Assembly (NCBI GenBank): GCA_965206885.1
Contig: CBDBLJ010000002.1
Span: forward strand, 18,459-82,458
DNA from: Amylibacter sp.
Lineage (GTDB): Bacteria > Pseudomonadota > Alphaproteobacteria > Rhodobacterales > Rhodobacteraceae
Direction of reading: 5' to 3'
Length of the DNA: 64,000 nucleotides
Shown here piece by piece: positions 2,878 through 64,000 of the stretch; position 1 is the stretch's first letter; every line of letters begins with the position of its first letter. Under the pieces are notes generated by a model. That model saw only the letters and a list, made by a program, of their open reading frames with translations, did not search any database and was not told where the DNA came from. Made by a program: the position numbers and the translations under genes.

Positions 2878-4232
2878 GGCACTTCTCCGCTTTGTTGAGT
2901 AGATTTAGGATTTCAAATAGAGCATAGATTGATTATCTGGAATGGATGATTGTCTAATTTTGAGTTTGAAGTATTCGGTATCCTTGATGCCTCTGGCTCG
3001 CTTACGGATCATTCCTATACTGACATTACCAGCCTCTATCCTGGCGCTTGTGAGCTTGTGTTTGGCGTAGTTGCAGATGCCCACACAATGTTTCCGTAGG
3101 GATTTCGCGAACTTTTTTAGATAGAGCATCTGTGACTGATCTGCTATCAGGCACCAACGTTCCAGTTGCTCCGCCATCGCCTCAAATGAAGCGGCACTCC
3201 ACAGCAGCTGAAGCTGTTCTTTCAAGACGTAAAGTGCATTCAGGTTGCTATTGCTCTCCAGCAACCTTTGCAGCTTGTCACTTTGTTTTTCACTCAACTT
3301 ATCCGCATTTTTGAGCAACAGATAATGCGTCCCTTTCATCAACTCTTTACCACTTGGATCGGCCTTTCTGAACTCAAGTCGACGCTGATTATGGATAGCT
3401 TTGCTGTAGTTTTTCATGACGTGGAAACGGTCAAATACTATGTCGGCCAACGGCAAGGACTCTCTGACAGCCTTTTGGTAGGCAGGCCCCATATCCATCG
3501 CTACGGCCTTTATTTTGCAGGCTGTATCTGGTTGCAGTTGTTTCAAAAACCTTGAAAAAACCTCGGCAGTTCGGCCTGCTTCAACCCAGATCAGATGACC
3601 GCCAACCATATCGTAGACCACCGTCATGTAGTCATGACCTTTCGCCCGGGCAACTTCATCTACACCAATATATTCCAAGCCAGTTAGCTCTGCAGGATCA
3701 AGCGTAGGGAGAGTTTCAATAAGGTATGCCCTGTCGATATTCTTGACCGTTTCCCATCGTATATCCAAATGTCTGGAAACCGCTTGAATAGACATATGCC
3801 GACATAATCCACTGATCAGTCGGCAAAATCGGTGAGTGAAACGGCACCCTTTATCAACAAAATCACACCCCTCAATGCGGCGTTCGCCCTTGTTAATATA
3901 AACCTGCGCCAGCTCAATCTCGACCACACAAGGATACCCAAAAAGGGGGATGTCGTTTACTTGTCGGCGGACATGCTGGTTGATGCTTCCCTTCTGGCCT
4001 GTAGCAGGGTCTATAGCCCTCCTACGCGCGTCTCGGCTGCAGTGAATGACAATCTTAACACCGCCGTCATCCAGTTTAATTTCATTTACACGTTGCCCTT
4101 TGAGGCCTAAAATATGCTGCGAGATGTTGATTGTCATATACCTGCTCTATGTAAAGTTATCAGAAACCATACATATCAACAGGTTACTTGGCGGTCGGCA
4201 TCTTTTTCTACTCAACAAAGCGGAGAAGAGCC
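2878..4232 (-). mobile_element. ISL3-family insertion sequence, 1355 bp, copy 1
   Basis: 25-bp terminal IRs GGCACTTCTCCGCTTTGTTGAGTAG with 1 mismatch; 8-bp TSD AAAATCAA at 2870..2877 and 4233..4240. Confidence 0.95.
2905..4137 (-). CDS. ISL3-family transposase (410 aa)
   Basis: IGVDE, VAMDM...Y, IVFDRFHVMK motifs and a C-terminal EAGN..I..I.KRARG segment typical of DDE_Tnp_ISL3. Confidence 0.93.
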   Translation of the reverse strand: MTINISQHILGLKGQRVNEIKLDDGGVKIVIHCSRDARRRAIDPATGQKGSINQHVRRQVNDIPLFGYPCVVEIELAQVYINKGERRIEGCDFVDKGCRFTHRFCRLISGLCRHMSIQAVSRHLDIRWETVKNIDRAYLIETLPTLDPAELTGLEYIGVDEVARAKGHDYMTVVYDMVGGHLIWVEAGRTAEVFSRFLKQLQPDTACKIKAVAMDMGPAYQKAVRESLPLADIVFDRFHVMKNYSKAIHNQRRLEFRKADPSGKELMKGTHYLLLKNADKLSEKQSDKLQRLLESNSNLNALYVLKEQLQLLWSAASFEAMAEQLERWCLIADQSQMLYLKKFAKSLRKHCVGICNYAKHKLTSARIEAGNVSIGMIRKRARGIKDTEYFKLKIRQSSIPDNQSMLYLKS

Positions 4233-23899: not shown

Positions 23900-24574
23900 C
23901 TAATAGTTCTCCCTATTTTTTAATCACTTTGAAAGAGCTACATTTTTGGAGTATAGATTTATCGTCAATTTAATATTTTTTTGACGTATATTTGTACTTA
24001 ATCATATTATTTTAAACGCCATTAACCTTACTATAAACTCGATTATCCTAAGCCTAATTCAACTAGAGAATGTATCCCTTTCCTATCTAAAACCTGTATT
24101 TTTATGAAGTTAAGATGAAAACGCTACTTTGCATTTTGCAAAATAATAGTATTTATCAACTGGTAGATTGGCAGATCTATATGTTATTACTGCCAATCTA
24201 AATAGCTTTAAGGAACAGTTGTCCTACAATTTATGAGAACCACCACCGTTCAGAACTTTTAGCACCGTCCATGGCCCAATTACTCGCGATTACATCTGGG
24301 TGGGAAACCCGTTTATTCAAGCCATGTACAAGATTTGCGAACCCCCATACCACAGCACCACCGTCTTCGTTGTGAAGTTTCTGGCATTCCCAGTACATCG
24401 CTTTGCGCTTTTCGTAATCCAGCTCGCCGCGTGCTGCGATTACAAGCTCATTGAAGCGGTCAGCTGCTGGTGTGCCTTTCCAAGCAGTGTCGTTCCATGA
24501 GGAACCCTCAACACAACAGGCTGAGAACATCCAGTCATTAGTTGGACGGCCTGCCCATGTGCTTGTAACCCAAC

Positions 24575-25790
24575 CACGGCAATCGCTTGAAGATTTCAGC
24601 CTTCACCTTTGATTGCGGCTTTTAGGTAACTATCATCCCAAGCGGCTGTTTTTCTTCGTATTTTCAGACTGGCCGTATCGCCGACTTGCTTGAAGATGTT
24701 GATTGCACTATGTCGCATCAGAGCCATGTTGGCGGGGCCATTTTGGGTCCGCAAGCGCATCAGGTCGTCGTGAAACACCACATCCATCACCCAGTGCAGG
24801 CGATTTTCCACACCCCAATGGGCGCGTGTGGCGCGCAGGAATTGCTTGGCTGAGAGCGGTGCGGAGGACAGATAGTAACGTCGCGAGAAACTGGTTTTAC
24901 CTTTGTGTTTGACCTCGGCCTCGATCATGCCGATAGCGGCGAGGCCTGGAAACCTTGGTGCGCCAGGCTCAGACCGATCAGGGCGCAGCCACTCTACATC
25001 ATGACTGACATAGGCACGACGGATTTCTATCCGCCCATGATCGGCATCGGTGGTTTCATGGGTTTCCAAACCACTGGTCTGGTCGAAATAGAGCCTCACC
25101 TCTTCATGCAGTGATTTTTGGTTGCCTTTAAGCGCCAAAAGATAGTCTGCGCCTTGTGCGAGGATCGCCGCAGCAATACCGTGTTGGCAGCCCATTGCAT
25201 CAATCGTGACCAGCGCGCCTTTCAACTCAAGCCGCGCCAGTAGTCGAGGTATCGCGCTGATTTCATTCTCTTTCTCGTCACAGGATTCTTGCCCCAAGAC
25301 CAATCTCTGACGCGTTGCCCAAGCTGAAACCAGATGCAGGGCGCGGCCATCCTCACCATGCGCACGGCGTGACGACTTGCCGTCAATTGCCACGATCTCA
25401 TCATCGCCATCGCGCAAGGCCGCAACCCAGGAAACGAAGCATTCGCTAAACAGGTCAGCGGGAATCGCGTTCATCACATCATTGAGCGTGTCATGAGATG
25501 GGATCCCATCTTTGAAGGGTAGAAACCCACGCAAGAATTTCAATTTTCGGTCCGCCCATCGGGCTATTTCGGCAAAATCATCAGCACCAGCCATAACACC
25601 GCAGAGCACAATCAGTAGGATTTCGGGTAGTGGATAAACAGTTTTCCAGCTCTGGCGTGGGTCTTCAATGGCAGAAAAATGGTCGAGGATATTGGCTGAG
25701 ATCATGGGAGGCTCCGAATGTCATTTCAATGACCAGAGAATCACATATCACCCGCTAAGGGAATCCCCACTTTTTCAAGCGATTGCCGTG
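24575..25790 (-). mobile_element. ISAs1-family insertion sequence, 1216 bp, copy 1
   Basis: Perfect 17-bp IR CACGGCAATCGCTTGAA; 10-bp TSD GTAACCCAAC at 24565..24574 and 25791..25800. Confidence 0.95.
24596..25705 (-). CDS. ISAs1-family transposase (369 aa)
   Basis: IEDPR...YPL.EIL, VAIDGKSSR, VTIDAMGCQ, LKGNQ and HWGVENRLHW motifs. Confidence 0.95.
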   Translation of the reverse strand: MISANILDHFSAIEDPRQSWKTVYPLPEILLIVLCGVMAGADDFAEIARWADRKLKFLRGFLPFKDGIPSHDTLNDVMNAIPADLFSECFVSWVAALRDGDDEIVAIDGKSSRRAHGEDGRALHLVSAWATRQRLVLGQESCDEKENEISAIPRLLARLELKGALVTIDAMGCQHGIAAAILAQGADYLLALKGNQKSLHEEVRLYFDQTSGLETHETTDADHGRIEIRRAYVSHDVEWLRPDRSEPGAPRFPGLAAIGMIEAEVKHKGKTSFSRRYYLSSAPLSAKQFLRATRAHWGVENRLHWVMDVVFHDDLMRLRTQNGPANMALMRHSAINIFKQVGDTASLKIRRKTAAWDDSYLKAAIKGEG

Positions 25791-38594: not shown

Positions 38595-38688
38595 AATCGA
38601 CTCCTATTTAACTGTTGATTGCAGTCTTTATTTTCCAATAATTGGTTAAAACCACCAGCTTTTAGCTGGTCAGCTTTAGCGTTATTTA

Positions 38689-38756
38689 CATAAGGTTTCC
38701 TTCCATTTTAAGACCCAGCGTTGCGGTAAGGTCTTAAAATGGAAGGAAACCTTATG
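38689..38756 (+). promoter_or_regulatory. Perfect 27-bp stem hairpin covering the tnpA RBS and ATG (mirrored at 41583..41650)
   Basis: CATAAGGTTTCCTTCCATTTTAAGACC, 14-nt loop, then GGTCTTAAAATGGAAGGAAACCTTATG. Confidence 0.85.
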
Positions 38757-39173
38757 ATCTATTCTACTGGAAGTCATAGCAGATATTATCACAGATACCA
38801 TATCGTTTGGGTAACAAAATATCGTTACAAGGTGCTGCGTGGTGAAATGCGTGAGCGTATTCGGACATTGATACGACAAACGTGCAATGAATTGGGCGTA
38901 CACATTGAAAAAGGCGTATTGTCTACCGACCATGTGCATATGTTTGTGTCAGTCCCGCCGCACGTCCCAATTTCAAAGGTGATGCAACGCGTAAAAGGGA
39001 GGTCCTCATACAAGATACAGCGGGAGTACCCCGAATTACGCAAACGCTATTGGGGGCAACGGTTCTGGGCTAGAGGCTATTTTTCAACGACGAGTGGAAA
39101 TGTGACGGATGACGTTATTCGTCAGTATCTTGAATTACATTCAAAACGTGAACCTACCGACGAAAGTCGGTAG
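38754..39173 (+). CDS. tnpA: IS200/IS605 Y1 transposase TnpA
   Basis: YHIVWVTKYR, HUH motif DHVHM, KGRSS and FWARGYF. Confidence 0.93.
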   Translation: MIYSTGSHSRYYHRYHIVWVTKYRYKVLRGEMRERIRTLIRQTCNELGVHIEKGVLSTDHVHMFVSVPPHVPISKVMQRVKGRSSYKIQREYPELRKRYWGQRFWARGYFSTTSGNVTDDVIRQYLELHSKREPTDESR

Positions 39174-40035
39174 TTGTTCAGTAAAACTAAATTTAAATCT
39201 AACCATATATTTTTACGCATATGTAAAGCGTTACTTTACGTTTTAATGTAACCATGTCAGTTACCGTCATGTCCAAGGGGGATTTCTATGACAATTTCAT
39301 TATTCAAAACATTAATTGCGATCTCTGAATACGGTAGCTTTAGCGCTGCGGCGGATCAGGTATGTGTTACACATGCAGCCGTCGGACAACAAATGAAACG
39401 CTTAGAAGAATCCTTCAATGTTTCGCTTTTTGACCGCACCCTAAAGACACCAAGATTAAACCAGCTAGGCAAAGCATTGGTGCCAAAAGCGAAAGAAGTT
39501 GTGAATGCATATGAGACCATTTTAGATGACGTAACGGGTGACCCGAGATTGATCGGAGAGCTTACCCTCGGTGCTGTCCCCTCTACCATTCGTGGTCTCA
39601 TTCCTAGATCGGTTAAAAGACTGATGGAAATTTATCCCGACCTGCACATTCGTGTAGTTCCCGATCTTTCAGGAAATTTACTAGAGCAAGTCGAGCGTGG
39701 CTCTTTAGATGCAGCAGTCCTAAGTGAACCAACTCGAGTGCCCACTAATCTTAATTGGATGCCATTTGTTGAAGAAGAATTGGTTTTGCTAACCTCATCC
39801 GAAGTTACCGAAAACGACCCTATCCGCATTCTTGCAACGATGTCTTATATCCGACACACTCGGCAAGCCGCAGTTGGCATGTTGGCAGAAGAATGGTTGG
39901 CTAAAAACAATGTCACTGTGCACGACACAATGGAAATGGAATCGTTGGAAAATCTTTCCAGTATGGTTGCACACAATCTGGGTGTCTCGGTTGTTCCCAA
40001 CATTTGCATCCCTGACCCCATCTTTGCCCAACTTA

Positions 40036-40966: not shown

Positions 40967-41158
40967 TTAGAAAAATATCTCTGGGCCCTAAAGTAACCTC
41001 GCGCACTCTTGGGGTTTTAACACGTGTAGATTGTTCCAAGGTAAAACTGGTCCAACGGCTTCTGGATCAAATATGTTCAACGTTAGAAGAGCATAAAACA
41101 AATGAGGCGATATAAAATTATTTTTTACATAATATTAAATAACTTTGTTTTGCTTAAC

Positions 41159-41704
41159 TGAACAACTACCGACTTTCGTCGGTAGGTTCACGTTTTGAAT
41201 GTAATTCAAGATACTGACGAATAACGTCATCCGTCACATTTCCACTCGTCGTTGAAAAATAGCCTCTAGCCCAGAACCGTTGCCCCCAATAGCGTTTGCG
41301 TAATTCGGGGTACTCCCGCTGTATCTTGTATGAGGACCTCCCTTTTACGCGTTGCATCACCTTTGAAATTGGGACGTGCGGCGGGACTGACACAAACATA
41401 TGCACATGGTCGGTAGACAATACGCCTTTTTCAATGTGTACGCCCAATTCATTGCACGTTTGTCGTATCAATGTCCGAATACGCTCACGCATTTCACCAC
41501 GCAGCACCTTGTAACGATATTTTGTTACCCAAACGATATGGTATCTGTGATAATATCTGCTATGACTTCCAGTAGAATAGATCATAAGGTTTCCTTCCAT
41601 TTTAAGACCTTACCGCAACGCTGGGTCTTAAAATGGAAGGAAACCTTATGTAAATAACGCTAAAGCTGACCAGCTAAAAGCTGGTGGTTTTAACCAATTA
41701 TTGG
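41159..41704 (-). mobile_element. IS200-family element, copy 2 (inverted relative to copy 1)
   Basis: Reverse complement of 38635..39180; identical TnpA translation in the ORF track. Confidence 0.88.
41166..41585 (-). CDS. tnpA: IS200/IS605 Y1 transposase TnpA
   Basis: Translation identical to 38754..39173. Confidence 0.93.
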   Translation of the reverse strand: MIYSTGSHSRYYHRYHIVWVTKYRYKVLRGEMRERIRTLIRQTCNELGVHIEKGVLSTDHVHMFVSVPPHVPISKVMQRVKGRSSYKIQREYPELRKRYWGQRFWARGYFSTTSGNVTDDVIRQYLELHSKREPTDESR

Positions 41705-41705
41705 A

Positions 41706-42173
41706 AAATTAACAGATCACCACGGAAAGATACGAACAGACGAGAGTTTTGACGACAAATGGATGTTAGTCTTTTTTGGATTTACCAATTGTCCTGATAT
41801 TTGCCCCGTTGGGCTATCAACTATTGCGCAAACCTTGGATGATCTCGGCACAGCATCGACACAGATACAATCGTTGTTTATCACTGTTGACCCTCAGCGT
41901 GACACCCCATCTGTCTTGGCCGATTATATCCCCCAGTTCCACCCAGATATTCTGGGGTTGAGCGGAACAGCCAAACAGATTGATCGCACTGCAAAATCTT
42001 TCAAGATTTTTTATGGAAAAGTTAAAGAGGCAACGGCACCAGACGGTTATACGATGGAACACAGTTCCTCGATGTTTTTGTTTGATCCGAAAGGTGAATT
42101 CGTACGCCTATATGATTTTAATGCGACCAGCGATGAAATACTTGCCGATTTAAAAAGCCGGATGGATATATAG
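41706..42173 (+). pseudogene. SCO1/SenC copper chaperone lacking its 5' end
   Basis: The frame extends upstream of the ORF-track start (KLTDHHGKIRTDESFDDKWMLVFFGFTNCPDICP...YTMEHSS) to the IS200 end; no start codon or membrane anchor remains. Confidence 0.8.
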
Positions 42174-42293: not shown

Positions 42294-43509
42294 CACGGCA
42301 ATCGCTTGAAAAAGTGGGGATTCCCTTAGCGGGTGATATGTGATTCTCTGGTCATTGAAATGACATTCGGAGCCTCCCATGATCTCAGCCAATATCCTCG
42401 ACCATTTTTCTGCCATTGAAGACCCACGCCAGAGCTGGAAAACTGTTTATCCACTACCCGAAATCCTACTGATTGTGCTCTGCGGTGTTATGGCTGGTGC
42501 TGATGATTTTGCCGAAATAGCCCGATGGGCGGACCGAAAATTGAAATTCTTGCGTGGGTTTCTACCCTTCAAAGATGGGATCCCATCTCATGACACGCTC
42601 AATGATGTGATGAACGCGATTCCCGCTGACCTGTTTAGCGAATGCTTCGTTTCCTGGGTTGCGGCCTTGCGCGATGGCGATGATGAGATCGTGGCAATTG
42701 ACGGCAAGTCGTCACGCCGTGCGCATGGTGAGGATGGCCGCGCCCTGCATCTGGTTTCAGCTTGGGCAACGCGTCAGAGATTGGTCTTGGGGCAAGAATC
42801 CTGTGACGAGAAAGAGAATGAAATCAGCGCGATACCTCGACTACTGGCGCGGCTTGAGTTGAAAGGCGCGCTGGTCACGATTGATGCAATGGGCTGCCAA
42901 CACGGTATTGCTGCGGCGATCCTCGCACAAGGCGCAGACTATCTTTTGGCGCTTAAAGGCAACCAAAAATCACTGCATGAAGAGGTGAGGCTCTATTTCG
43001 ACCAGACCAGTGGTTTGGAAACCCATGAAACCACCGATGCCGATCATGGGCGGATAGAAATCCGTCGTGCCTATGTCAGTCATGATGTAGAGTGGCTGCG
43101 CCCTGATCGGTCTGAGCCTGGCGCACCAAGGTTTCCAGGCCTCGCCGCTATCGGCATGATCGAGGCCGAGGTCAAACACAAAGGTAAAACCAGTTTCTCG
43201 CGACGTTACTATCTGTCCTCCGCACCGCTCTCAGCCAAGCAATTCCTGCGCGCCACACGCGCCCATTGGGGTGTGGAAAATCGCCTGCACTGGGTGATGG
43301 ATGTGGTGTTTCACGACGACCTGATGCGCTTGCGGACCCAAAATGGCCCCGCCAACATGGCTCTGATGCGACATAGTGCAATCAACATCTTCAAGCAAGT
43401 CGGCGATACGGCCAGTCTGAAAATACGAAGAAAAACAGCCGCTTGGGATGATAGTTACCTAAAAGCCGCAATCAAAGGTGAAGGCTGAAATCTTCAAGCG
43501 ATTGCCGTG
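42294..43509 (+). mobile_element. ISAs1-family insertion sequence, 1216 bp, copy 2, without TSD
   Basis: Same IRs and same transposase as copy 1; flanks TATGCTGAGT and GGCTAGGTGT do not match. Confidence 0.93.
42379..43488 (+). CDS. ISAs1-family transposase (369 aa)
   Basis: Translation identical to 24596..25705. Confidence 0.95.
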   Translation: MISANILDHFSAIEDPRQSWKTVYPLPEILLIVLCGVMAGADDFAEIARWADRKLKFLRGFLPFKDGIPSHDTLNDVMNAIPADLFSECFVSWVAALRDGDDEIVAIDGKSSRRAHGEDGRALHLVSAWATRQRLVLGQESCDEKENEISAIPRLLARLELKGALVTIDAMGCQHGIAAAILAQGADYLLALKGNQKSLHEEVRLYFDQTSGLETHETTDADHGRIEIRRAYVSHDVEWLRPDRSEPGAPRFPGLAAIGMIEAEVKHKGKTSFSRRYYLSSAPLSAKQFLRATRAHWGVENRLHWVMDVVFHDDLMRLRTQNGPANMALMRHSAINIFKQVGDTASLKIRRKTAAWDDSYLKAAIKGEG

Positions 43510-43645
43510 GGCTAGGTGTAATGCCATGATGCAGCATTGATCTACGCCATGAGGCCGCGATCATAGAGTGTGCAGGCGATTTCACATCAATCGCATACCG
43601 TACTTTTTCTGAATGTTCTTGATAGGCTTCCGCCAAGTCAGTCAT
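43510..43645 (-). pseudogene. 5' remnant of a GAF-domain (AcoR-like) regulator cut off by ISAs1
   Basis: RBS GGGAGA, then MTDLAEAYQEHSEKVRYAIDVKSPAHSMIAASWRRSMLHHGITPS up to the IS end; I..SW.RS...G..P is typical of AcoR-type N-termini. Confidence 0.6.
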
Positions 43646-59550: not shown

Positions 59551-59776
59551 GAAAGACAACAGTTAATCACTGTTGTCTTTCTCACCTGCTCCACCTTCCA
59601 AAGCCTCTTCATCCACCCCTGTGAGAGCAGCACCTGCTATGGTTTTCTTTTGCGTTTCAGTTAGGTTTTGTGTGTTGGTATCATCCGCCAATCGTACAGT
59701 CACTTCACGGTGTGCAAACTTGATACCTTCACGCGCGAACAGGTCACGAATTTCCTGAAACACACGTTTACGAATG

Positions 59777-59906
59777 GTAAGCATCAAGGGAACCCCCTCT
59801 ATTTTGGTTTGATTTGAGATGCGATTATTGCGCGAGGCTGGCGGTTTGGTTGGCGCGATATGAGGATTTTTCTGATGAGCAAGCGACGGGCTGGGCGAGG
59901 TTCCAA
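59777..59906 (+). repeat. Left arm of the 130-bp inverted repeat (partner 63178..63307)
   Basis: Ungapped manual alignment gives 120/130 identities, with the first 32 bp perfect; the arm includes the tnpA start region. Confidence 0.9.
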
Positions 59907-60240
59907 ATACACGGATGATTTTAAGCGACGGCTAGTGGCGGAGAGCCAAGGTGATGGCGTGAGTGTTCCGATGGTCTCGCGGCGTCATGATGTGCCACCC
60001 CGCCGGATTTACGCGTGGCGCGGTGATGCGCGGTTCCAGCCGGACGCGTCGGGTGATACCGGCTTCATACCAGTCGAAGTGGCAAACAGTGATACTGATG
60101 TTTCATCTGTGCTGCCAGAAGCGCAGCTTACAACCAGTCCCCAGATTGAGATCACTTTGGAGAATGGGCGCAAGCTGAGCGTGAGCGGTGGGGTTGATGC
60201 GGGCTTTGTGCTGGAATTGGCGCGTGGGCTGGCGGCATGA
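59875..60240 (+). CDS. tnpA: IS66 TnpA (HTH accessory protein)
   Basis: [12 protein letters not shown]...GVSV..VSRRHDV...[19 protein letters not shown]; ATGA overlap with tnpB. Confidence 0.88.
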
Positions 60241-60584
60241 TCCCGGTACTGGCGGATGCAAAGATCTGGCTGGCGGCGGGGGTGACTGACATGCGGCGCG
60301 GGTTCAACGGTCTGGCCGTTCAGACCGAGCAGGTTCTGGGGGGGGATCCTTACTCCGGCCATCTGTTTTTGTTCCGAGGGCGACGCGGTGATCAGATCAA
60401 GATGATCTGGTGGGATGGTCAGGGCGCGTGCCTGTTTACCAAGCGCCTTGAACGGGGTCGGTTTATCTGGCCCTCTGCTCAGGAAGGTAAGATCAACCTG
60501 AGCCGTGCGCAGCTTGCGATGCTGATGGAAGGTCTGGATTGGCGTATGCCGCTCAAGACATGGCGACCCAAGATGGTAGGTTAG
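60237..60584 (+). CDS. tnpB: IS66 TnpB accessory protein
   Basis: [51 protein letters not shown]. Confidence 0.95.
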
Positions 60585-60654
60585 AGGCAATGTTTTATGG
60601 GTATTTCTGACGTTTTGGGATTCCCATGAGGCCCTTGATTTGGTAAGGAGTGGC

Positions 60655-62340
60655 ATGAGTAAGACCCCTCCAAATCTGGCTGATTTGCCCCCTGACGTGC
60701 AGGCGTTTGTGGCCGCACAAGCGGCGGAATTGGCTCGTAAAGACGCGGAGTTGTTGGGGCTGTCGTTGAGCCATGCCACAGCGCAAAAGCGCCTTGAAAA
60801 TGAGATGGAAGCGGCTCTTGCTGCGGAGCGCGCCGCCCATGCGCTTGCCATTATGAGCAGAGATACCCTGATTGCCGATCTGCGCCTGCAATTGCACGGA
60901 CATAAAAAACATCGCTTCGGTTCAAAGTCAGAAAGCAGCACACAGCTGGCGCTGGCGCTGATCCTTGAAGATCTTGAAATCGAACAAGCCGCTGAGACGG
61001 ATGATGAGAATGGGCCCTCTGACGCTGAGACCACAAAGCCGCCGCGTACCCCGCGCAAGCGCAAACCTTTCCCCAAGGGGCTCAAGCGGGTCAAAAAGAC
61101 CATCACGCCCAGTGATGCTTGCACCGACTGTGGTGGCAGCTTCAAAGTGCTCGGGACAGATGTGATGGAAGAACTGGAATATGTGCCCGGCCATTACGTC
61201 GTAAAACAACTTGAGCGCCCACGACTGGCCTGCACCTGTTGTGAGAAGGTGGTTCAGGCCGAGATGCCAAGCCGTCCTATTCCCAAGAGCTTTGTCGGCC
61301 CTGCGTTGATGGCCCACATCTTGTGCTGCAAATACGGCTATCATCTGCCGCTGTATCGACAGAGCCAGATGTTTGAGAATGAAGGCATCGATCTGAGCGG
61401 GTCGCTCATGGCCAACTGGGTCGGCAAATGCACTAAGCTGTTGGAGCGCGTGGCTGATGCCATCCGGGATCACGTTTTTGAGGCGCAAGCGATCTTCATG
61501 GACGACACCACGGTCAAACTGCTCCAAAAGGGCAAGGGACGCGGTAATAACAAGACAAAAACCGCGCGGCTCTGGGTCTATGCCAGAGATGAGAGCGCCT
61601 GGGCGAGCGGCGCACCACCGGCGGTGTGGTATCAGTTCTCCACCAACCGGGGCGCAGAACATCCGAGCAAACATCTCAAGCCCTACAAGGGCTATGCCCA
61701 TGCGGATGCCTATGCTGGGTATAATGACGCCTATCGGACGGGGCGCGTCAAAGAGATGGCCTGCATGGCCCATGTTCGGCGGGATTTTTATAGCCTGTTT
61801 GAAAGTCTGAAGCTGCCCGTGGCGGGCGAAGCCGTTCTGCGCATTCGAAAGCTCTATGATGTTGAGGCACAAGCGCGGGGTCTGGCGCCTGCTGAGCGCG
61901 TGGCCCTGCGTCAGGAATATGCCAAGCCGATCTTTGATGAGTTGGAAATCTGGCTCAAGGAGCAGCTGGGCAAGATCTCCGTTAAGACGCCGCTGGCCAA
62001 GGCGATCAGATATGCGCTCGCGCGCATGCCAAAGGCGCGGCCCTATCTCGACAATGGCTTTCTGGAAATCGACAACAACACAGCCGAGCGTGCGGTGCGC
62101 CCTGTGGCCGTTGGACGTAAGAACTACCTGTTCATGGGATCAGAGGCAGGTGGAAAATCCGCCGCCATAGCCTACACCCTCATCGAAACCGCCAAGATGA
62201 ACAACGTCAATCCCGAAGCCTGGCTCGCATGGGTGCTCGAGCGCATCCAGGATCATCCCGCAAACCGTATGCAAGATCTCCTACCGTGGGCCTATCAGGA
62301 GATGATCGAGGAGCGGGAACAAAGCGTTATAGCGGCATGA
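60655..62340 (+). CDS. tnpC: IS66 TnpC DDE transposase
   Basis: Leucine-zipper-like region, FGSKSE, zinc-finger C..CGG and C..C, KYGYHLPLYRQ, FMDDT, CMAHVRR, IDNN.AERAVR. Confidence 0.95.
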   Translation: MSKTPPNLADLPPDVQAFVAAQAAELARKDAELLGLSLSHATAQKRLENEMEAALAAERAAHALAIMSRDTLIADLRLQLHGHKKHRFGSKSESSTQLALALILEDLEIEQAAETDDENGPSDAETTKPPRTPRKRKPFPKGLKRVKKTITPSDACTDCGGSFKVLGTDVMEELEYVPGHYVVKQLERPRLACTCCEKVVQAEMPSRPIPKSFVGPALMAHILCCKYGYHLPLYRQSQMFENEGIDLSGSLMANWVGKCTKLLERVADAIRDHVFEAQAIFMDDTTVKLLQKGKGRGNNKTKTARLWVYARDESAWASGAPPAVWYQFSTNRGAEHPSKHLKPYKGYAHADAYAGYNDAYRTGRVKEMACMAHVRRDFYSLFESLKLPVAGEAVLRIRKLYDVEAQARGLAPAERVALRQEYAKPIFDELEIWLKEQLGKISVKTPLAKAIRYALARMPKARPYLDNGFLEIDNNTAERAVRPVAVGRKNYLFMGSEAGGKSAAIAYTLIETAKMNNVNPEAWLAWVLERIQDHPANRMQDLLPWAYQEMIEEREQSVIAA

Positions 62341-63170
62341 TCGGCCCCCGTGATTCAGCGGCACTCCCAGAGCAAGGGGATCTGTTTGAAGAGCGCGGGA
62401 ATTGGCAAGGGCCAGATACCTCACAGCACGACTTGGGCGTTGAAAACCTTGAAGGCTTGTCCGACAAAGACCTCGTCGAGAAGACGGCAAAGGCTACACT
62501 GTCCAACGTCGACCTGCTGTGCGCCCAGATTGTGGAACGGGGCTTGGGAGATATAGCCGTTCCGGGTCTCGTCGCGCTTTGGAACCGGTTTAAGGGGTTC
62601 GGAATTGCGACCCCTTTACCAGAACAAAAGCTTGCCTTGGAAACTCTTCGCGCCATTGGGAATGAAGCTGCAAAAAAAGAAATCAGCAAGATCCTTGGCG
62701 CACAGGACTTGCCCGACAGCTTGCTCCCGTTTGTGTTGCAAGCCGCTGTGAGCGTGGGCTTGAAGCTGCCTCAGGCACAAATCTTGCCATGGCTGGAACA
62801 CGGCGCACCAACAGTCCGTGCCCAAGCCTTCATCCTTATACAATCGAACAGCCCACAGCGAAGCACCTTGGAAATCGGGTTCAGCGACCCAGACCCTTCA
62901 GTCCGACGAACCGCTCTGACAGTGGCGGGGAATCTGGGCCATATCAGCGCAAGGGCAGGATTGCTTGCCGAGTTCCGGAAAAATCCAACCAGCCAAAAGA
63001 TCGAAGCGCTTTTAACTGTCGCCGATGACGACATCGTTGTTGAAATCGGAAGATACGCACTGGAAAATCCGCCTCACCGGTGCCTCATCGCAAGTGAACT
63101 TGAGGCTCTGGACACACCCAAAGCCCGAAAGCTGGCCCAACGAATCAACGATCAGATAATGCAGCGTTGA
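62337..63170 (+). CDS. IS66 passenger gene: 277-aa alpha-helical HEAT/PBS-lyase-like protein with N-terminal QGDLF
   Basis: ATG overlaps the tnpC stop (ATGA); HEAT-like units LEHGAPTVRAQAF and FSDPDPSVRRTAL..AGNLG; stops 7 bp before the right repeat arm. Confidence 0.75.
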   Translation: MIGPRDSAALPEQGDLFEERGNWQGPDTSQHDLGVENLEGLSDKDLVEKTAKATLSNVDLLCAQIVERGLGDIAVPGLVALWNRFKGFGIATPLPEQKLALETLRAIGNEAAKKEISKILGAQDLPDSLLPFVLQAAVSVGLKLPQAQILPWLEHGAPTVRAQAFILIQSNSPQRSTLEIGFSDPDPSVRRTALTVAGNLGHISARAGLLAEFRKNPTSQKIEALLTVADDDIVVEIGRYALENPPHRCLIASELEALDTPKARKLAQRINDQIMQR

Positions 63171-63177
63171 TGTTTAC

Positions 63178-63307
63178 TTGGAACCTCGGCCACCCCGTCG
63201 CTTGATCATCAGAAAAATCCTCATATCACGCCAGCCACATCGCCAGCCTCGCGCAATAATCGCAGCTCAAGTCAGACCAAAATAGAGGGGGTTCCCTTGA
63301 TGCTTAC
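63178..63307 (-). repeat. Right arm of the 130-bp inverted repeat; a diverged IS66 left end with a tnpA stub
   Basis: The minus strand reads ATG ATC AAG CGA CGG GGT GGC CGA GGT TCC AAG TAA (MIKRRGGRGSK*), versus [12 protein letters not shown] in the real tnpA. Confidence 0.85.
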
Positions 63308-63347
63308 TACGAATGCTCCATTGGTCCCCTGGTTTGGTCATAAATTT

Positions 63348-64000
63348 GGCACTTCTCCGCTTTGTTGAGTAGATTTAGGATTTTAAATAGAGCATAGATT
63401 GATTATCTGGAATGGATGATTGTCTAATTTTGAGTTTGAAGTATTCGGTATCCTTGATGCCTCTGGCTCGCTTACGGATCATTCCTATACTGACATTACC
63501 AGCCTCTATCCTGGCGCTTGTGAGCTTGTGTTTGGCGTAGTTGCAGATGCCCACACAATGTTTCCGTAGGGATTTCGCGAACTTTTTTAGATAGAGCATC
63601 TGTGACTGATCTGCTATCAGGCACCAACGTTCCAGTTGCTCCGCCATCGCCTCAAATGAAGCGGCACTCCACAGCAGCTGAAGCTGTTCTTTCAAGACGT
63701 AAAGTGCATTCAGGTTGCTATTGCTCTCCAGCAACCTTTGCAGCTTGTCACTTTGTTTTTCACTCAACTTATCCGCATTTTTGAGCAACAGATAATGCGT
63801 CCCTTTCATCAACTCTTTACCACTTGGATCGGCCTTTCTGAACTCAAGTCGACGCTGATTATGGATAGCTTTGCTGTAGTTTTTCATGACGTGGAAACGG
63901 TCAAATACTATGTCGGCCAACGGCAAGGACTCTCTGACAGCCTTTTGGTAGGCAGGCCCCATATCCATCGCTACGGCCTTTATTTTGCAGGCTGTATCTG
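63348..64000 (-). mobile_element. ISL3-family insertion sequence, copy 2 (partial, runs off the window)
   Basis: Starts with the same IR as copy 1; transposase 3' part 63375..64000; one synonymous difference noticed (2914 C versus 63384 T). Predicted TSD ATAAATTT. Confidence 0.93.

Follow-up and report, generated by a model that had tools for sequence, protein, structure and literature searches.

We analysed a 64,000-nucleotide stretch of the genome of Amylibacter sp. (contig CBDBLJ010000002.1, positions 18,459 to 82,458; referred to below as the window) and concentrated on an insertion sequence (IS) of the IS66 family located at window positions 59777-63307. The element is 3531 bp long and contains four genes (tnpA, tnpB, tnpC and orf4). 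It is an active, passenger-type IS66 element with two alternative right ends, which probably inserted, in inverted orientation, into a sister copy at nucleotide 130 of the latter and was then mobilised as a 3531-bp unit. What is new in this structure appears to be modest: a natural IS66 derivative that has proliferated and in which a left end works as a second right end, nested with the native one.

Look-up of the exact Orf4 sequence of the window returned no record, and a protein 99% identical to it (P0001) was used in its place. The gene for P0001 was found on at least 18 contigs from a single long-read metagenome, and the window element was mapped onto ten of these places. This revealed eight full 3531-bp copies (99.2-99.5% identity), six of which are flanked by distinct perfect 8-bp duplications (GATTAGCT, GTTCGATG, GCACAATC, CCTTTTCC, CCTGAAGC and GCTGTATC); the copy with the last of these duplications is nested in the tnpC gene of another copy. 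Two copies (L025 and L034) are 3401 bp long. They stop at ...GCAGCGTTGATGTTTAC, which corresponds to window position 63177, and carry duplications of their own (GCTTTTTT and CGACAATG, respectively). The first-pass annotation of the window had proposed that the whole 3531-bp structure transposed as a unit, and had advised a search for other copies with different target-site duplications (TSDs). Such copies, six long and two short, were found, and the six long ones corroborate the proposal.

These observations show that the 3531-bp form has since multiplied, giving many copies at different sites with different 8-bp duplications. Because the 3401-bp and the 3531-bp copies each have their own duplications, both right ends, i.e. 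the native right inverted repeat (IRR) and the tip of the 130-bp add-on, are functional, to judge from the flanks of the copies, and a left end can apparently serve as a right end in vivo. The initial description of the element as one in which two left ends had replaced a right end has to be abandoned, since the native IRR is intact at 63161-63177 and still used by the two 3401-bp copies. Short and long copies also share polymorphisms: q1876T and q1880C (q, position in the element) occur in the short copies L025s and L034s as well as in the long copies L028, L029 and L033b. This indicates that the two forms are interleaved and do not constitute separate clades.

Two individual features of the long copies can be added. 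L027 and L028 are located on the same 113-kb circular contig, and the 3531-bp copy of L029 carries a 182-bp insertion (L029 3251-3421, at q981) in the 5' part of tnpC, possibly a miniature inverted-repeat transposable element.

It is possible, but rather doubtful, that the borrowed left end outperforms the weakly matching native IRR as a right terminus, and that the left-left derivative consequently out-transposes its parent. The copy numbers that can be cited for this idea are about 9 long versus 2 short copies in one community, and about 50 copies in the host. If it were true, IS66 elements would normally keep a deliberately weak right end, and the left 130 bp would suffice for end recognition. 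Little is known of how IS66 elements transpose in biochemical terms, including end recognition and the roles of TnpA and TnpB, and the present case constitutes a natural experiment: a single element moves on one of two right ends, either the 12-nt-matching native IRR or a left-end copy of 130 bp, which makes the two directly comparable.

Structure of the element and its termini

The assignment to the IS66 family made in the first-pass annotation was confirmed, as the first three open reading frames (ORFs) gave clear Pfam and NCBIfam matches (Table 1). TnpC has the zinc-finger and leucine-zipper DDE transposase organisation of the family, with LZ (PF13007), zf-IS66 (PF13005), DDE_Tnp_IS66 and C-terminal element (PF13817) domains, and its NF033517 score lies far above the cutoff of 180 bits. 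The score of TnpA against NF047595 (IS66_ISRel24_TnpA) is 72.8 bits, slightly under the cutoff of 74. TnpA and TnpB are encoded upstream of the transposase with overlapping stop and start codons, and the same octamer, GCATGATC (containing the ATGA overlap), forms the stop-start overlap of both tnpA/tnpB and tnpC/orf4.

Table 1. Features of the IS66-family element and its insertion site (window positions)
Feature	Position	Strand	Basis or remark
3' part of interrupted host ORF	59563..59776, continues 63316-63347	-	ISL3 copy cuts again from 63348
Left copy of 8-bp TSD, TACGAATG	59769..59776	.	Sequence read; empty-site contig
Left end: left inverted repeat (IRL) tip GTAAGCATCAAGGGAACCCCCTCT, tnpA upstream region and first codons	59777..59912	+	Left arm of the long inverted repeat
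tnpA, 121 aa, HTH_Tnp_1, IS66 accessory protein	59875..60240	+	PF01527 E 7e-10
tnpB, 115 aa, IS66 Orf2-like	60237..60584	+	PF05717 E 6e-39; NF033819
tnpC, IS66 DDE transposase, 561 aa	60655..62340	+	PF03050 E 5e-95; NF033517 434.9 bits
orf4, 277-aa HEAT-like alpha-solenoid protein	62337..63170	+	ATG overlaps tnpC stop; TGA (63168-70) inside native IRR
Native right end (IRR), GCAGCGTTGATGTTTAC	63161..63177	-	Terminus of 3401-bp copies and relatives
Stub ORF MIKRRGGRGSK*, start of the sister's tnpA	63174..63209	-	Stop TAA from native IRR tip (GTAAAC)
130-bp add-on: inverted nt 1-130 of a sister IS66 left end	63178..63307	-	120/130 to the element's own left end
Right copy of TSD, TACGAATG	63308..63315	.	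Sequence read

The long inverted repeat (IR) consists of two arms of 136 nt (59777-59912 and 63172-63307) that are 91% complementary. Counted directly from the tips, the arms agree at 32/32, 120/130 and 124/136 positions and differ at 33, 37, 43, 68, 70, 74, 80, 103, 115 and 119. In the whole 64-kb window there are exactly two occurrences of the 32-mer tip (0 expected from 100 shuffles). Both tips of the 3531-bp form, the right one being that of the add-on, read GTAAGCATCAAG, with the 5'-GTAAGC start of IS66 termini. The extended match of the ends (120/130, outer 32 bp perfect), the 8-bp TSD TACGAATG and the MIKRRGGRGSK* stub are all present as they had been described from the letters alone.

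Inside the inner edge of the long repeat, and overlapping the orf4 stop codon, lies the native IRR. Its tip, read as the reverse complement (GTAAACATCAAC), matches the IRL tip GTAAGCATCAAG at 10 of 12 positions and diverges beyond. The canonical 3401-bp form corresponds to window positions 59777-63177, i.e. from IRL GTAAGCATCAAG... to the short native IRR ...GTTGATGTTTAC. IRs of IS66 elements are typically about 20-30 bp long (PMC12888890 and general knowledge), a descriptive norm and not a strict criterion; the element departs from it in both its forms, with a native IRL/IRR match of 10/12 at the tip and a 136-nt IR in the derived form. Duplications of 8 bp, as is usual in the family, were seen for the window copy, the six other long copies, the two short copies and one relative (L035).

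It had also been proposed that the right arm carries an inward-facing tnpA promoter, from which antisense RNA would be made. Any putative tnpA promoter located within the first 98 bp has probably been duplicated in such an orientation, and this inward-facing copy of the tnpA control region might modulate orf4 and tnpC. A scan of 59600-63500 for the sigma-70 consensus detected no site in either arm and thus lent the antisense proposal no support; no Rfam family was matched.

The G+C content of the element (56%) exceeds the window average (46%), which suggests that it is compositionally foreign to its host and came from elsewhere.

Origin of the 130-bp add-on

The structure of the right terminus can be accounted for by nested transposition. 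One 3401-bp copy would have inserted, in inverted orientation, at nt 130 of a sister IS66 copy. The left tip of the sister would thereby have been placed 130 bp outside the native IRR, facing outward, and the transposase could then have paired the element's own IRL with that of the sister, so that a 3531-bp unit moved. The founder locus would be expected to show the left flank TTGGAACC and, next to it, the rest of the sister in inverted orientation. The trimming of a second IS, assumed in the first-pass annotation, is unneeded here: 130 bp is simply how far the insertion point lay from the tip of the sister.

Several lines of evidence speak for this origin. First, the native IRR tip is preserved to the base at the 63177/63178 junction, as transposition chemistry predicts. 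Second, the left-arm sequence (59777..59912) is conserved among the left ends of relatives. At four of the ten sites at which the arms differ (33C, 70A, 79C and 121G), the right arm carries the state of most other left ends, the element's own left end having lost the ancestral bases there, and it has derived states too. This combination of ancestral bases with derived states of its own points to a separate lineage as the source of the right arm and not to the decay of a self-copy. The retention of the ancestral bases upholds the claim that the right terminus goes back to the left end of a sister element and has since diverged.

Joints of a similar kind were identified elsewhere. In a metagenome-assembled genome (MAG) of Roseovarius (L015, 3442-8697), an orf4-bearing copy is nested in inverted orientation in the tnpC gene of a sister, and its native IRR abuts q1115. 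The P0013 lineage (L050, 2254-3498, and L051-L053) shows the native IRR joined to an inverted sister at q1223, a junction shared by four independent marine metagenomes, and L033 contains directly oriented nested copies at q1582 and q1965. Because of these joints at L015, L050-53 and L033, it can be stated that nested insertion into sister copies is frequent in this group of elements.

The loci concerned have some further features. At L015, there is 100% identity between the inverted arms (255 and 550 nt), and a further IS of 1 kb is present inside. The inverted part in the P0013 lineage amounts to 1223 bp and comprises tnpA, tnpB and the start of tnpC of the sister copy. A similar joint near q1220 was noticed at L014 (4002-6441), where it is broken by a repeat of about 130 nt.

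Several observations weigh against the proposed history. Neither the founder locus, i.e. a sister harbouring the element at nt 130, nor a sister left end matching the right arm by more than 91% was found. Two full 3531-bp copies, L027 (2441-5971) and L033c (L033 6363-9893), lack matching duplications, which suggests recombination or adjacent deletion between copies. The pattern of single nucleotide polymorphisms looks mosaic and speaks for neither direction of change between the 3401-bp and the 3531-bp form. Finally, the relative activity of the two right ends is deduced from a small number of copies, about 9 long and 2 short.

As an alternative to nesting, the long IR might have arisen by duplication of the element's own left end (through an inverted dimer, a fold-back or template switching), after which the arms diverged by 8%. 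Both arms are clearly homologous left ends, and the arms at L015 (255-550 nt), being 100% identical, show that very recent inverted duplications do occur. However, the 3531-bp copies are at least 99% alike and yet all have the same 10 differences between their arms. The ancestral states at four sites, together with the derived states of the right arm, speak for a separate lineage, and the junction coincides to the base with the tip of the native IRR, as it would after an insertion. We therefore regard self-duplication as unlikely.

The second alternative is that a long IR is ancestral or routine in this clade of IS66 elements and that the 3401-bp copies are derived from it. The predominance of long over short copies (about 9 to 2, counting one metagenome and the window) would be in accordance with this view. 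Nevertheless, no other lineage (72-85% nucleotide identity; 20 or more loci in genomes and metagenomes) has the add-on, and in all of them the native end is the only right end. The relative in a complete genome (L035, 82% nucleotide identity) is 3409 bp long, with the native terminus and the duplication AATTCGTC. Members of the P0023 lineage (L036-43; 72% nucleotide identity, 60% amino acid identity for orf4) are 3370 bp long and end in ...GCGTTGATGCTTAC, and one of them (L038) is flanked by the duplication GATTGTTG. In a Tateyamaria contig, in the Roseovarius MAG loci, in four further protein lineages and in eight metagenome loci, homology stops exactly at q3401 and is followed by diverse flanks. 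Besides L035, L036-43 and the three-ORF relatives, 12 further loci have the native terminus. Relatives with three ORFs and no orf4 (L005, L010, L013, L016 and L020) use the same short native IRR, ending in GCAGCGTTGATGYTTAC 25-60 bp past tnpC. A scan of the Joint Genome Institute (JGI) metagenomes for the exact add-on junction gave no match.

Given that the other lineages have the native end only and that the JGI scan was empty, these comparisons of sequences indicate that an IR of about 12 nt is normal for the clade, that the native IRR is ancestral, and that the long IR arose secondarily and is peculiar to the lineage of the window element. The first-pass annotation had named routine occurrence of such IRs in related elements as an observation that would overturn its reading; relatives in fact have IRs of about 12 nt or of 24 nt. 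A long IR as a clade-typical feature was accordingly rejected, and we give very little credence to its ancestral status.

The mechanism originally proposed for the window was gene capture: another IS66 element landed, inverted, on the far side of a neighbouring host gene, orf4, and was trimmed to 130 bp, and the resulting chimera captured the gene. Part of this holds, in that the right terminus does come from the left end of a sister. Capture between two IS66 ends has been proposed for ISPa75-fosZ (PMC12888890), and a relative of the window element carrying the sugE gene (L001-3/L067) has no canonical IRR and ends in a 24-nt IRL-like repeat. For orf4, the proposal fails on three points. The add-on is separated from orf4 by the native IRR, which places the gene inside the original element; four-ORF elements with the native end only carry orf4 at 72-85% nucleotide identity, some with duplications of their own; and the orf4 start overlaps the tnpC stop, with the orf4 stop lying within the IRR. 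Thus, the capture idea, which is not new as a concept, is contradicted for orf4, a gene inside the native ends and common to distant relatives, and a double-end event of this kind is highly improbable as its source.

The integrity of the assembly was supported by independent data. The identical 3531-bp structure is present in independent long-read contigs at 8 sites besides the window, and contigs from four independent public runs span the junctions, including 63177/63178 and the left junction; the latter was reproduced on a 16.3-kb contig of a host-like organism. Run X1 contains the empty site, with 59768 joined to 63308 and 8 shared bases. Loose ends at 63177 in the public runs represent short-form copies, and the word depth of the IS (about 5200, versus about 102 for the flank) corresponds to roughly 50 copies. 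A mis-joining of repeat copies, conceivable in an IS-rich host with the element in tens of copies and named from the outset as a possible objection, can be dismissed in view of these 8 other sites, the junction-spanning contigs and the empty site.

Movement on a second, borrowed end has parallels outside the IS66 family. Compound transposons can move on two outside ends (OE), as in the OE-OE transposition of Tn5 or in Tn10, and alternative or surrogate ends are used by IS50 (OE and inside end, IE) and by ISEcp1-type units. The window element resembles these systems in that its own end appears to be paired with the equivalent end of a second, inverted copy, and in that the inner end is usable, so that nested units move: the 3531-bp and the 3401-bp copies, with their own duplications, were mobilised on outward equivalent ends and on the inner end, respectively. 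It differs from a compound transposon, in which two complete or autonomous IS copies are present, since only 130 bp of the second copy remain, owing to the insertion point, and since there is no cargo between the inner and the outer ends. Moreover, it belongs to the IS66 family, whose end requirements have not been dissected. For the annotation of insertion sequences the implication is that a long IR can conceal an inner, still-functional end.

The passenger gene orf4 and related elements

Members of the IS66 family that carry a passenger gene behind the DDE transposase gene have been termed tIS66, with ISPa75-fosZ, ISPsp18, ISPa120, ISPa128 and ISPsy43 as examples; the right IR of ISPa75 resembles the IRL of another IS66 element (PMC12888890). 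The window element shares with them the order tnpA-tnpB-tnpC plus one extra gene before the right end, the GTAAGC... tip and the 8-bp duplications. Its orf4 is situated between the tnpC stop and the last ~16 bp of the canonical IRR, i.e. inside the ends, as in tIS66. The differences are that the extra gene encodes a HEAT-repeat protein and overlaps the tnpC stop (ATGA), that orf4 is conserved across the whole sub-lineage and is no recent resistance cargo, and that two nested right termini, the native IRR and the 130-bp sister left end, are present and both used. Compared with canonical IS66 elements (IS679 group; three ORFs, about 2.5-2.7 kb, IRs of about 20-30 bp and an 8-bp duplication), all three proteins, the terminal motif and the length of the duplication are the same, whereas the fourth ORF, the native IR match of only about 12 nt and the 136-nt IR of the derived form are not.

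The HEAT_2 domain scores below threshold in the Orf4 protein of the window and above threshold in its homologues. The AlphaFold2 model (mean predicted local distance difference test score of 81.6) is an all-helical solenoid spanning residues 43-276, with a disordered N-terminus. The best Foldseek matches were alphaRep, designed HEAT-like/armadillo repeats and CpcE/F, which are generic and give no functional clue. The ratio of nonsynonymous to synonymous substitutions (dN/dS) is 0.13-0.35 for orf4 and about 0.10 for tnpC, and orf4 is under purifying selection. An accessory role of its product in transposition may be envisaged; both the ATGA overlap and the purifying selection are compatible with it.

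The gene occurs together with the same native end in lineages with identities down to 72% at the nucleotide level and 57-60% at the amino acid level. Close homologues of Orf4 (at least 51% identical) are few and are encoded beside tnpC on IS-sized contigs. A profile search yielded 482 clusters of Orf4-like proteins of similar length, four distant members of which (27-33% identical) are encoded in ordinary chromosomal surroundings with no IS66 genes nearby. The view that the wider Orf4 family is always linked to IS66 was rejected on account of these four. A tblastn search of plasmids with Orf4 and a distant homologue gave no matches. The stand-alone cellular homologues suggest that orf4 was at some time captured, probably once and long ago, by the ancestor of the sub-lineage. 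We infer that it is an old, selected component of the IS lineage, unrelated to the add-on. These elements, whose members related to the window element were all found in Rhodobacterales, define a sub-lineage of marine IS66 in which a HEAT-repeat gene overlapping the transposase stop is kept under selection.

Two of the distant chromosomal homologues (L059 2550-4816 and L058 4001-5688) overlap a neighbouring gene by 4 nt. The neighbour is an upstream gene for a 484-aa PF27394 protein in one case and a downstream AEP-TOTE primase-like gene in the other; such overlapping neighbours may hint at the original partners of the Orf4 family.

Another observation concerns the rate of divergence of orf4. 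In comparisons of the window element with L004, L044, L035, L054 and L045, the synonymous divergence of orf4 was 2-3 times below that of tnpC in the same pairs (e.g. 0.23 vs 0.71). This points to either mosaic recombination between IS lineages or extra constraint on the DNA or RNA of orf4.

A sister lineage (L001-3, e.g. L003 3125-6129, and L067 8995-11999) consists of IS66 elements with about 83% nucleotide identity over tnpA-C, which carry sugE, an efflux gene of the small multidrug resistance (SMR) type, directly after tnpC, in the same slot as orf4. L067 is plasmid p3SUD7 of Sulfitobacter sp. D7, and the sugE relative is also present in Paracoccus and Primorskyibacter. In contrast to the window element, its passenger is an SMR transporter, the canonical IRR has been lost, and no duplication was seen; the 24-nt right repeat resembles a left end (22/24). 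In four genomes the right flank is identical over at least 3.5 kb, the left flanks being different, and the mobile unit may be larger or one-ended. Gene capture between two IS66 ends may have taken place in this sister lineage. The interval between tnpC and the IRR can be considered a recurrent cargo slot, occupied in the orf4 lineage and in the sugE sister lineage.

Insertion site and other repeats in the window

The IS66 element interrupts a host ORF (Table 1), whose frame stays open across the reconstructed empty site. Two copies of an element of the ISL3 family are present at 2878-4200 and 63348-64000, the latter only 32 bp past the IS66 duplication. The word depth of ISL3 in the public runs is 8-80 times that of IS66, which suggests that the IS load of the host is very heavy.

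Two 100% identical, inverted copies of a 1217-bp IS (24574-25790 and 42294-43510; DDE_Tnp_1_assoc and DDE_Tnp_1 domains, ISAs1-like) flank 16.5 kb of DNA, a segment which could be a compound transposon or an invertible segment. A 565-nt inverted repeat (38627-39191 and 41148-41712; 99% identical) surrounds about 2 kb that contain a gene for a LysR-type regulator and an IS5-like transposase gene.

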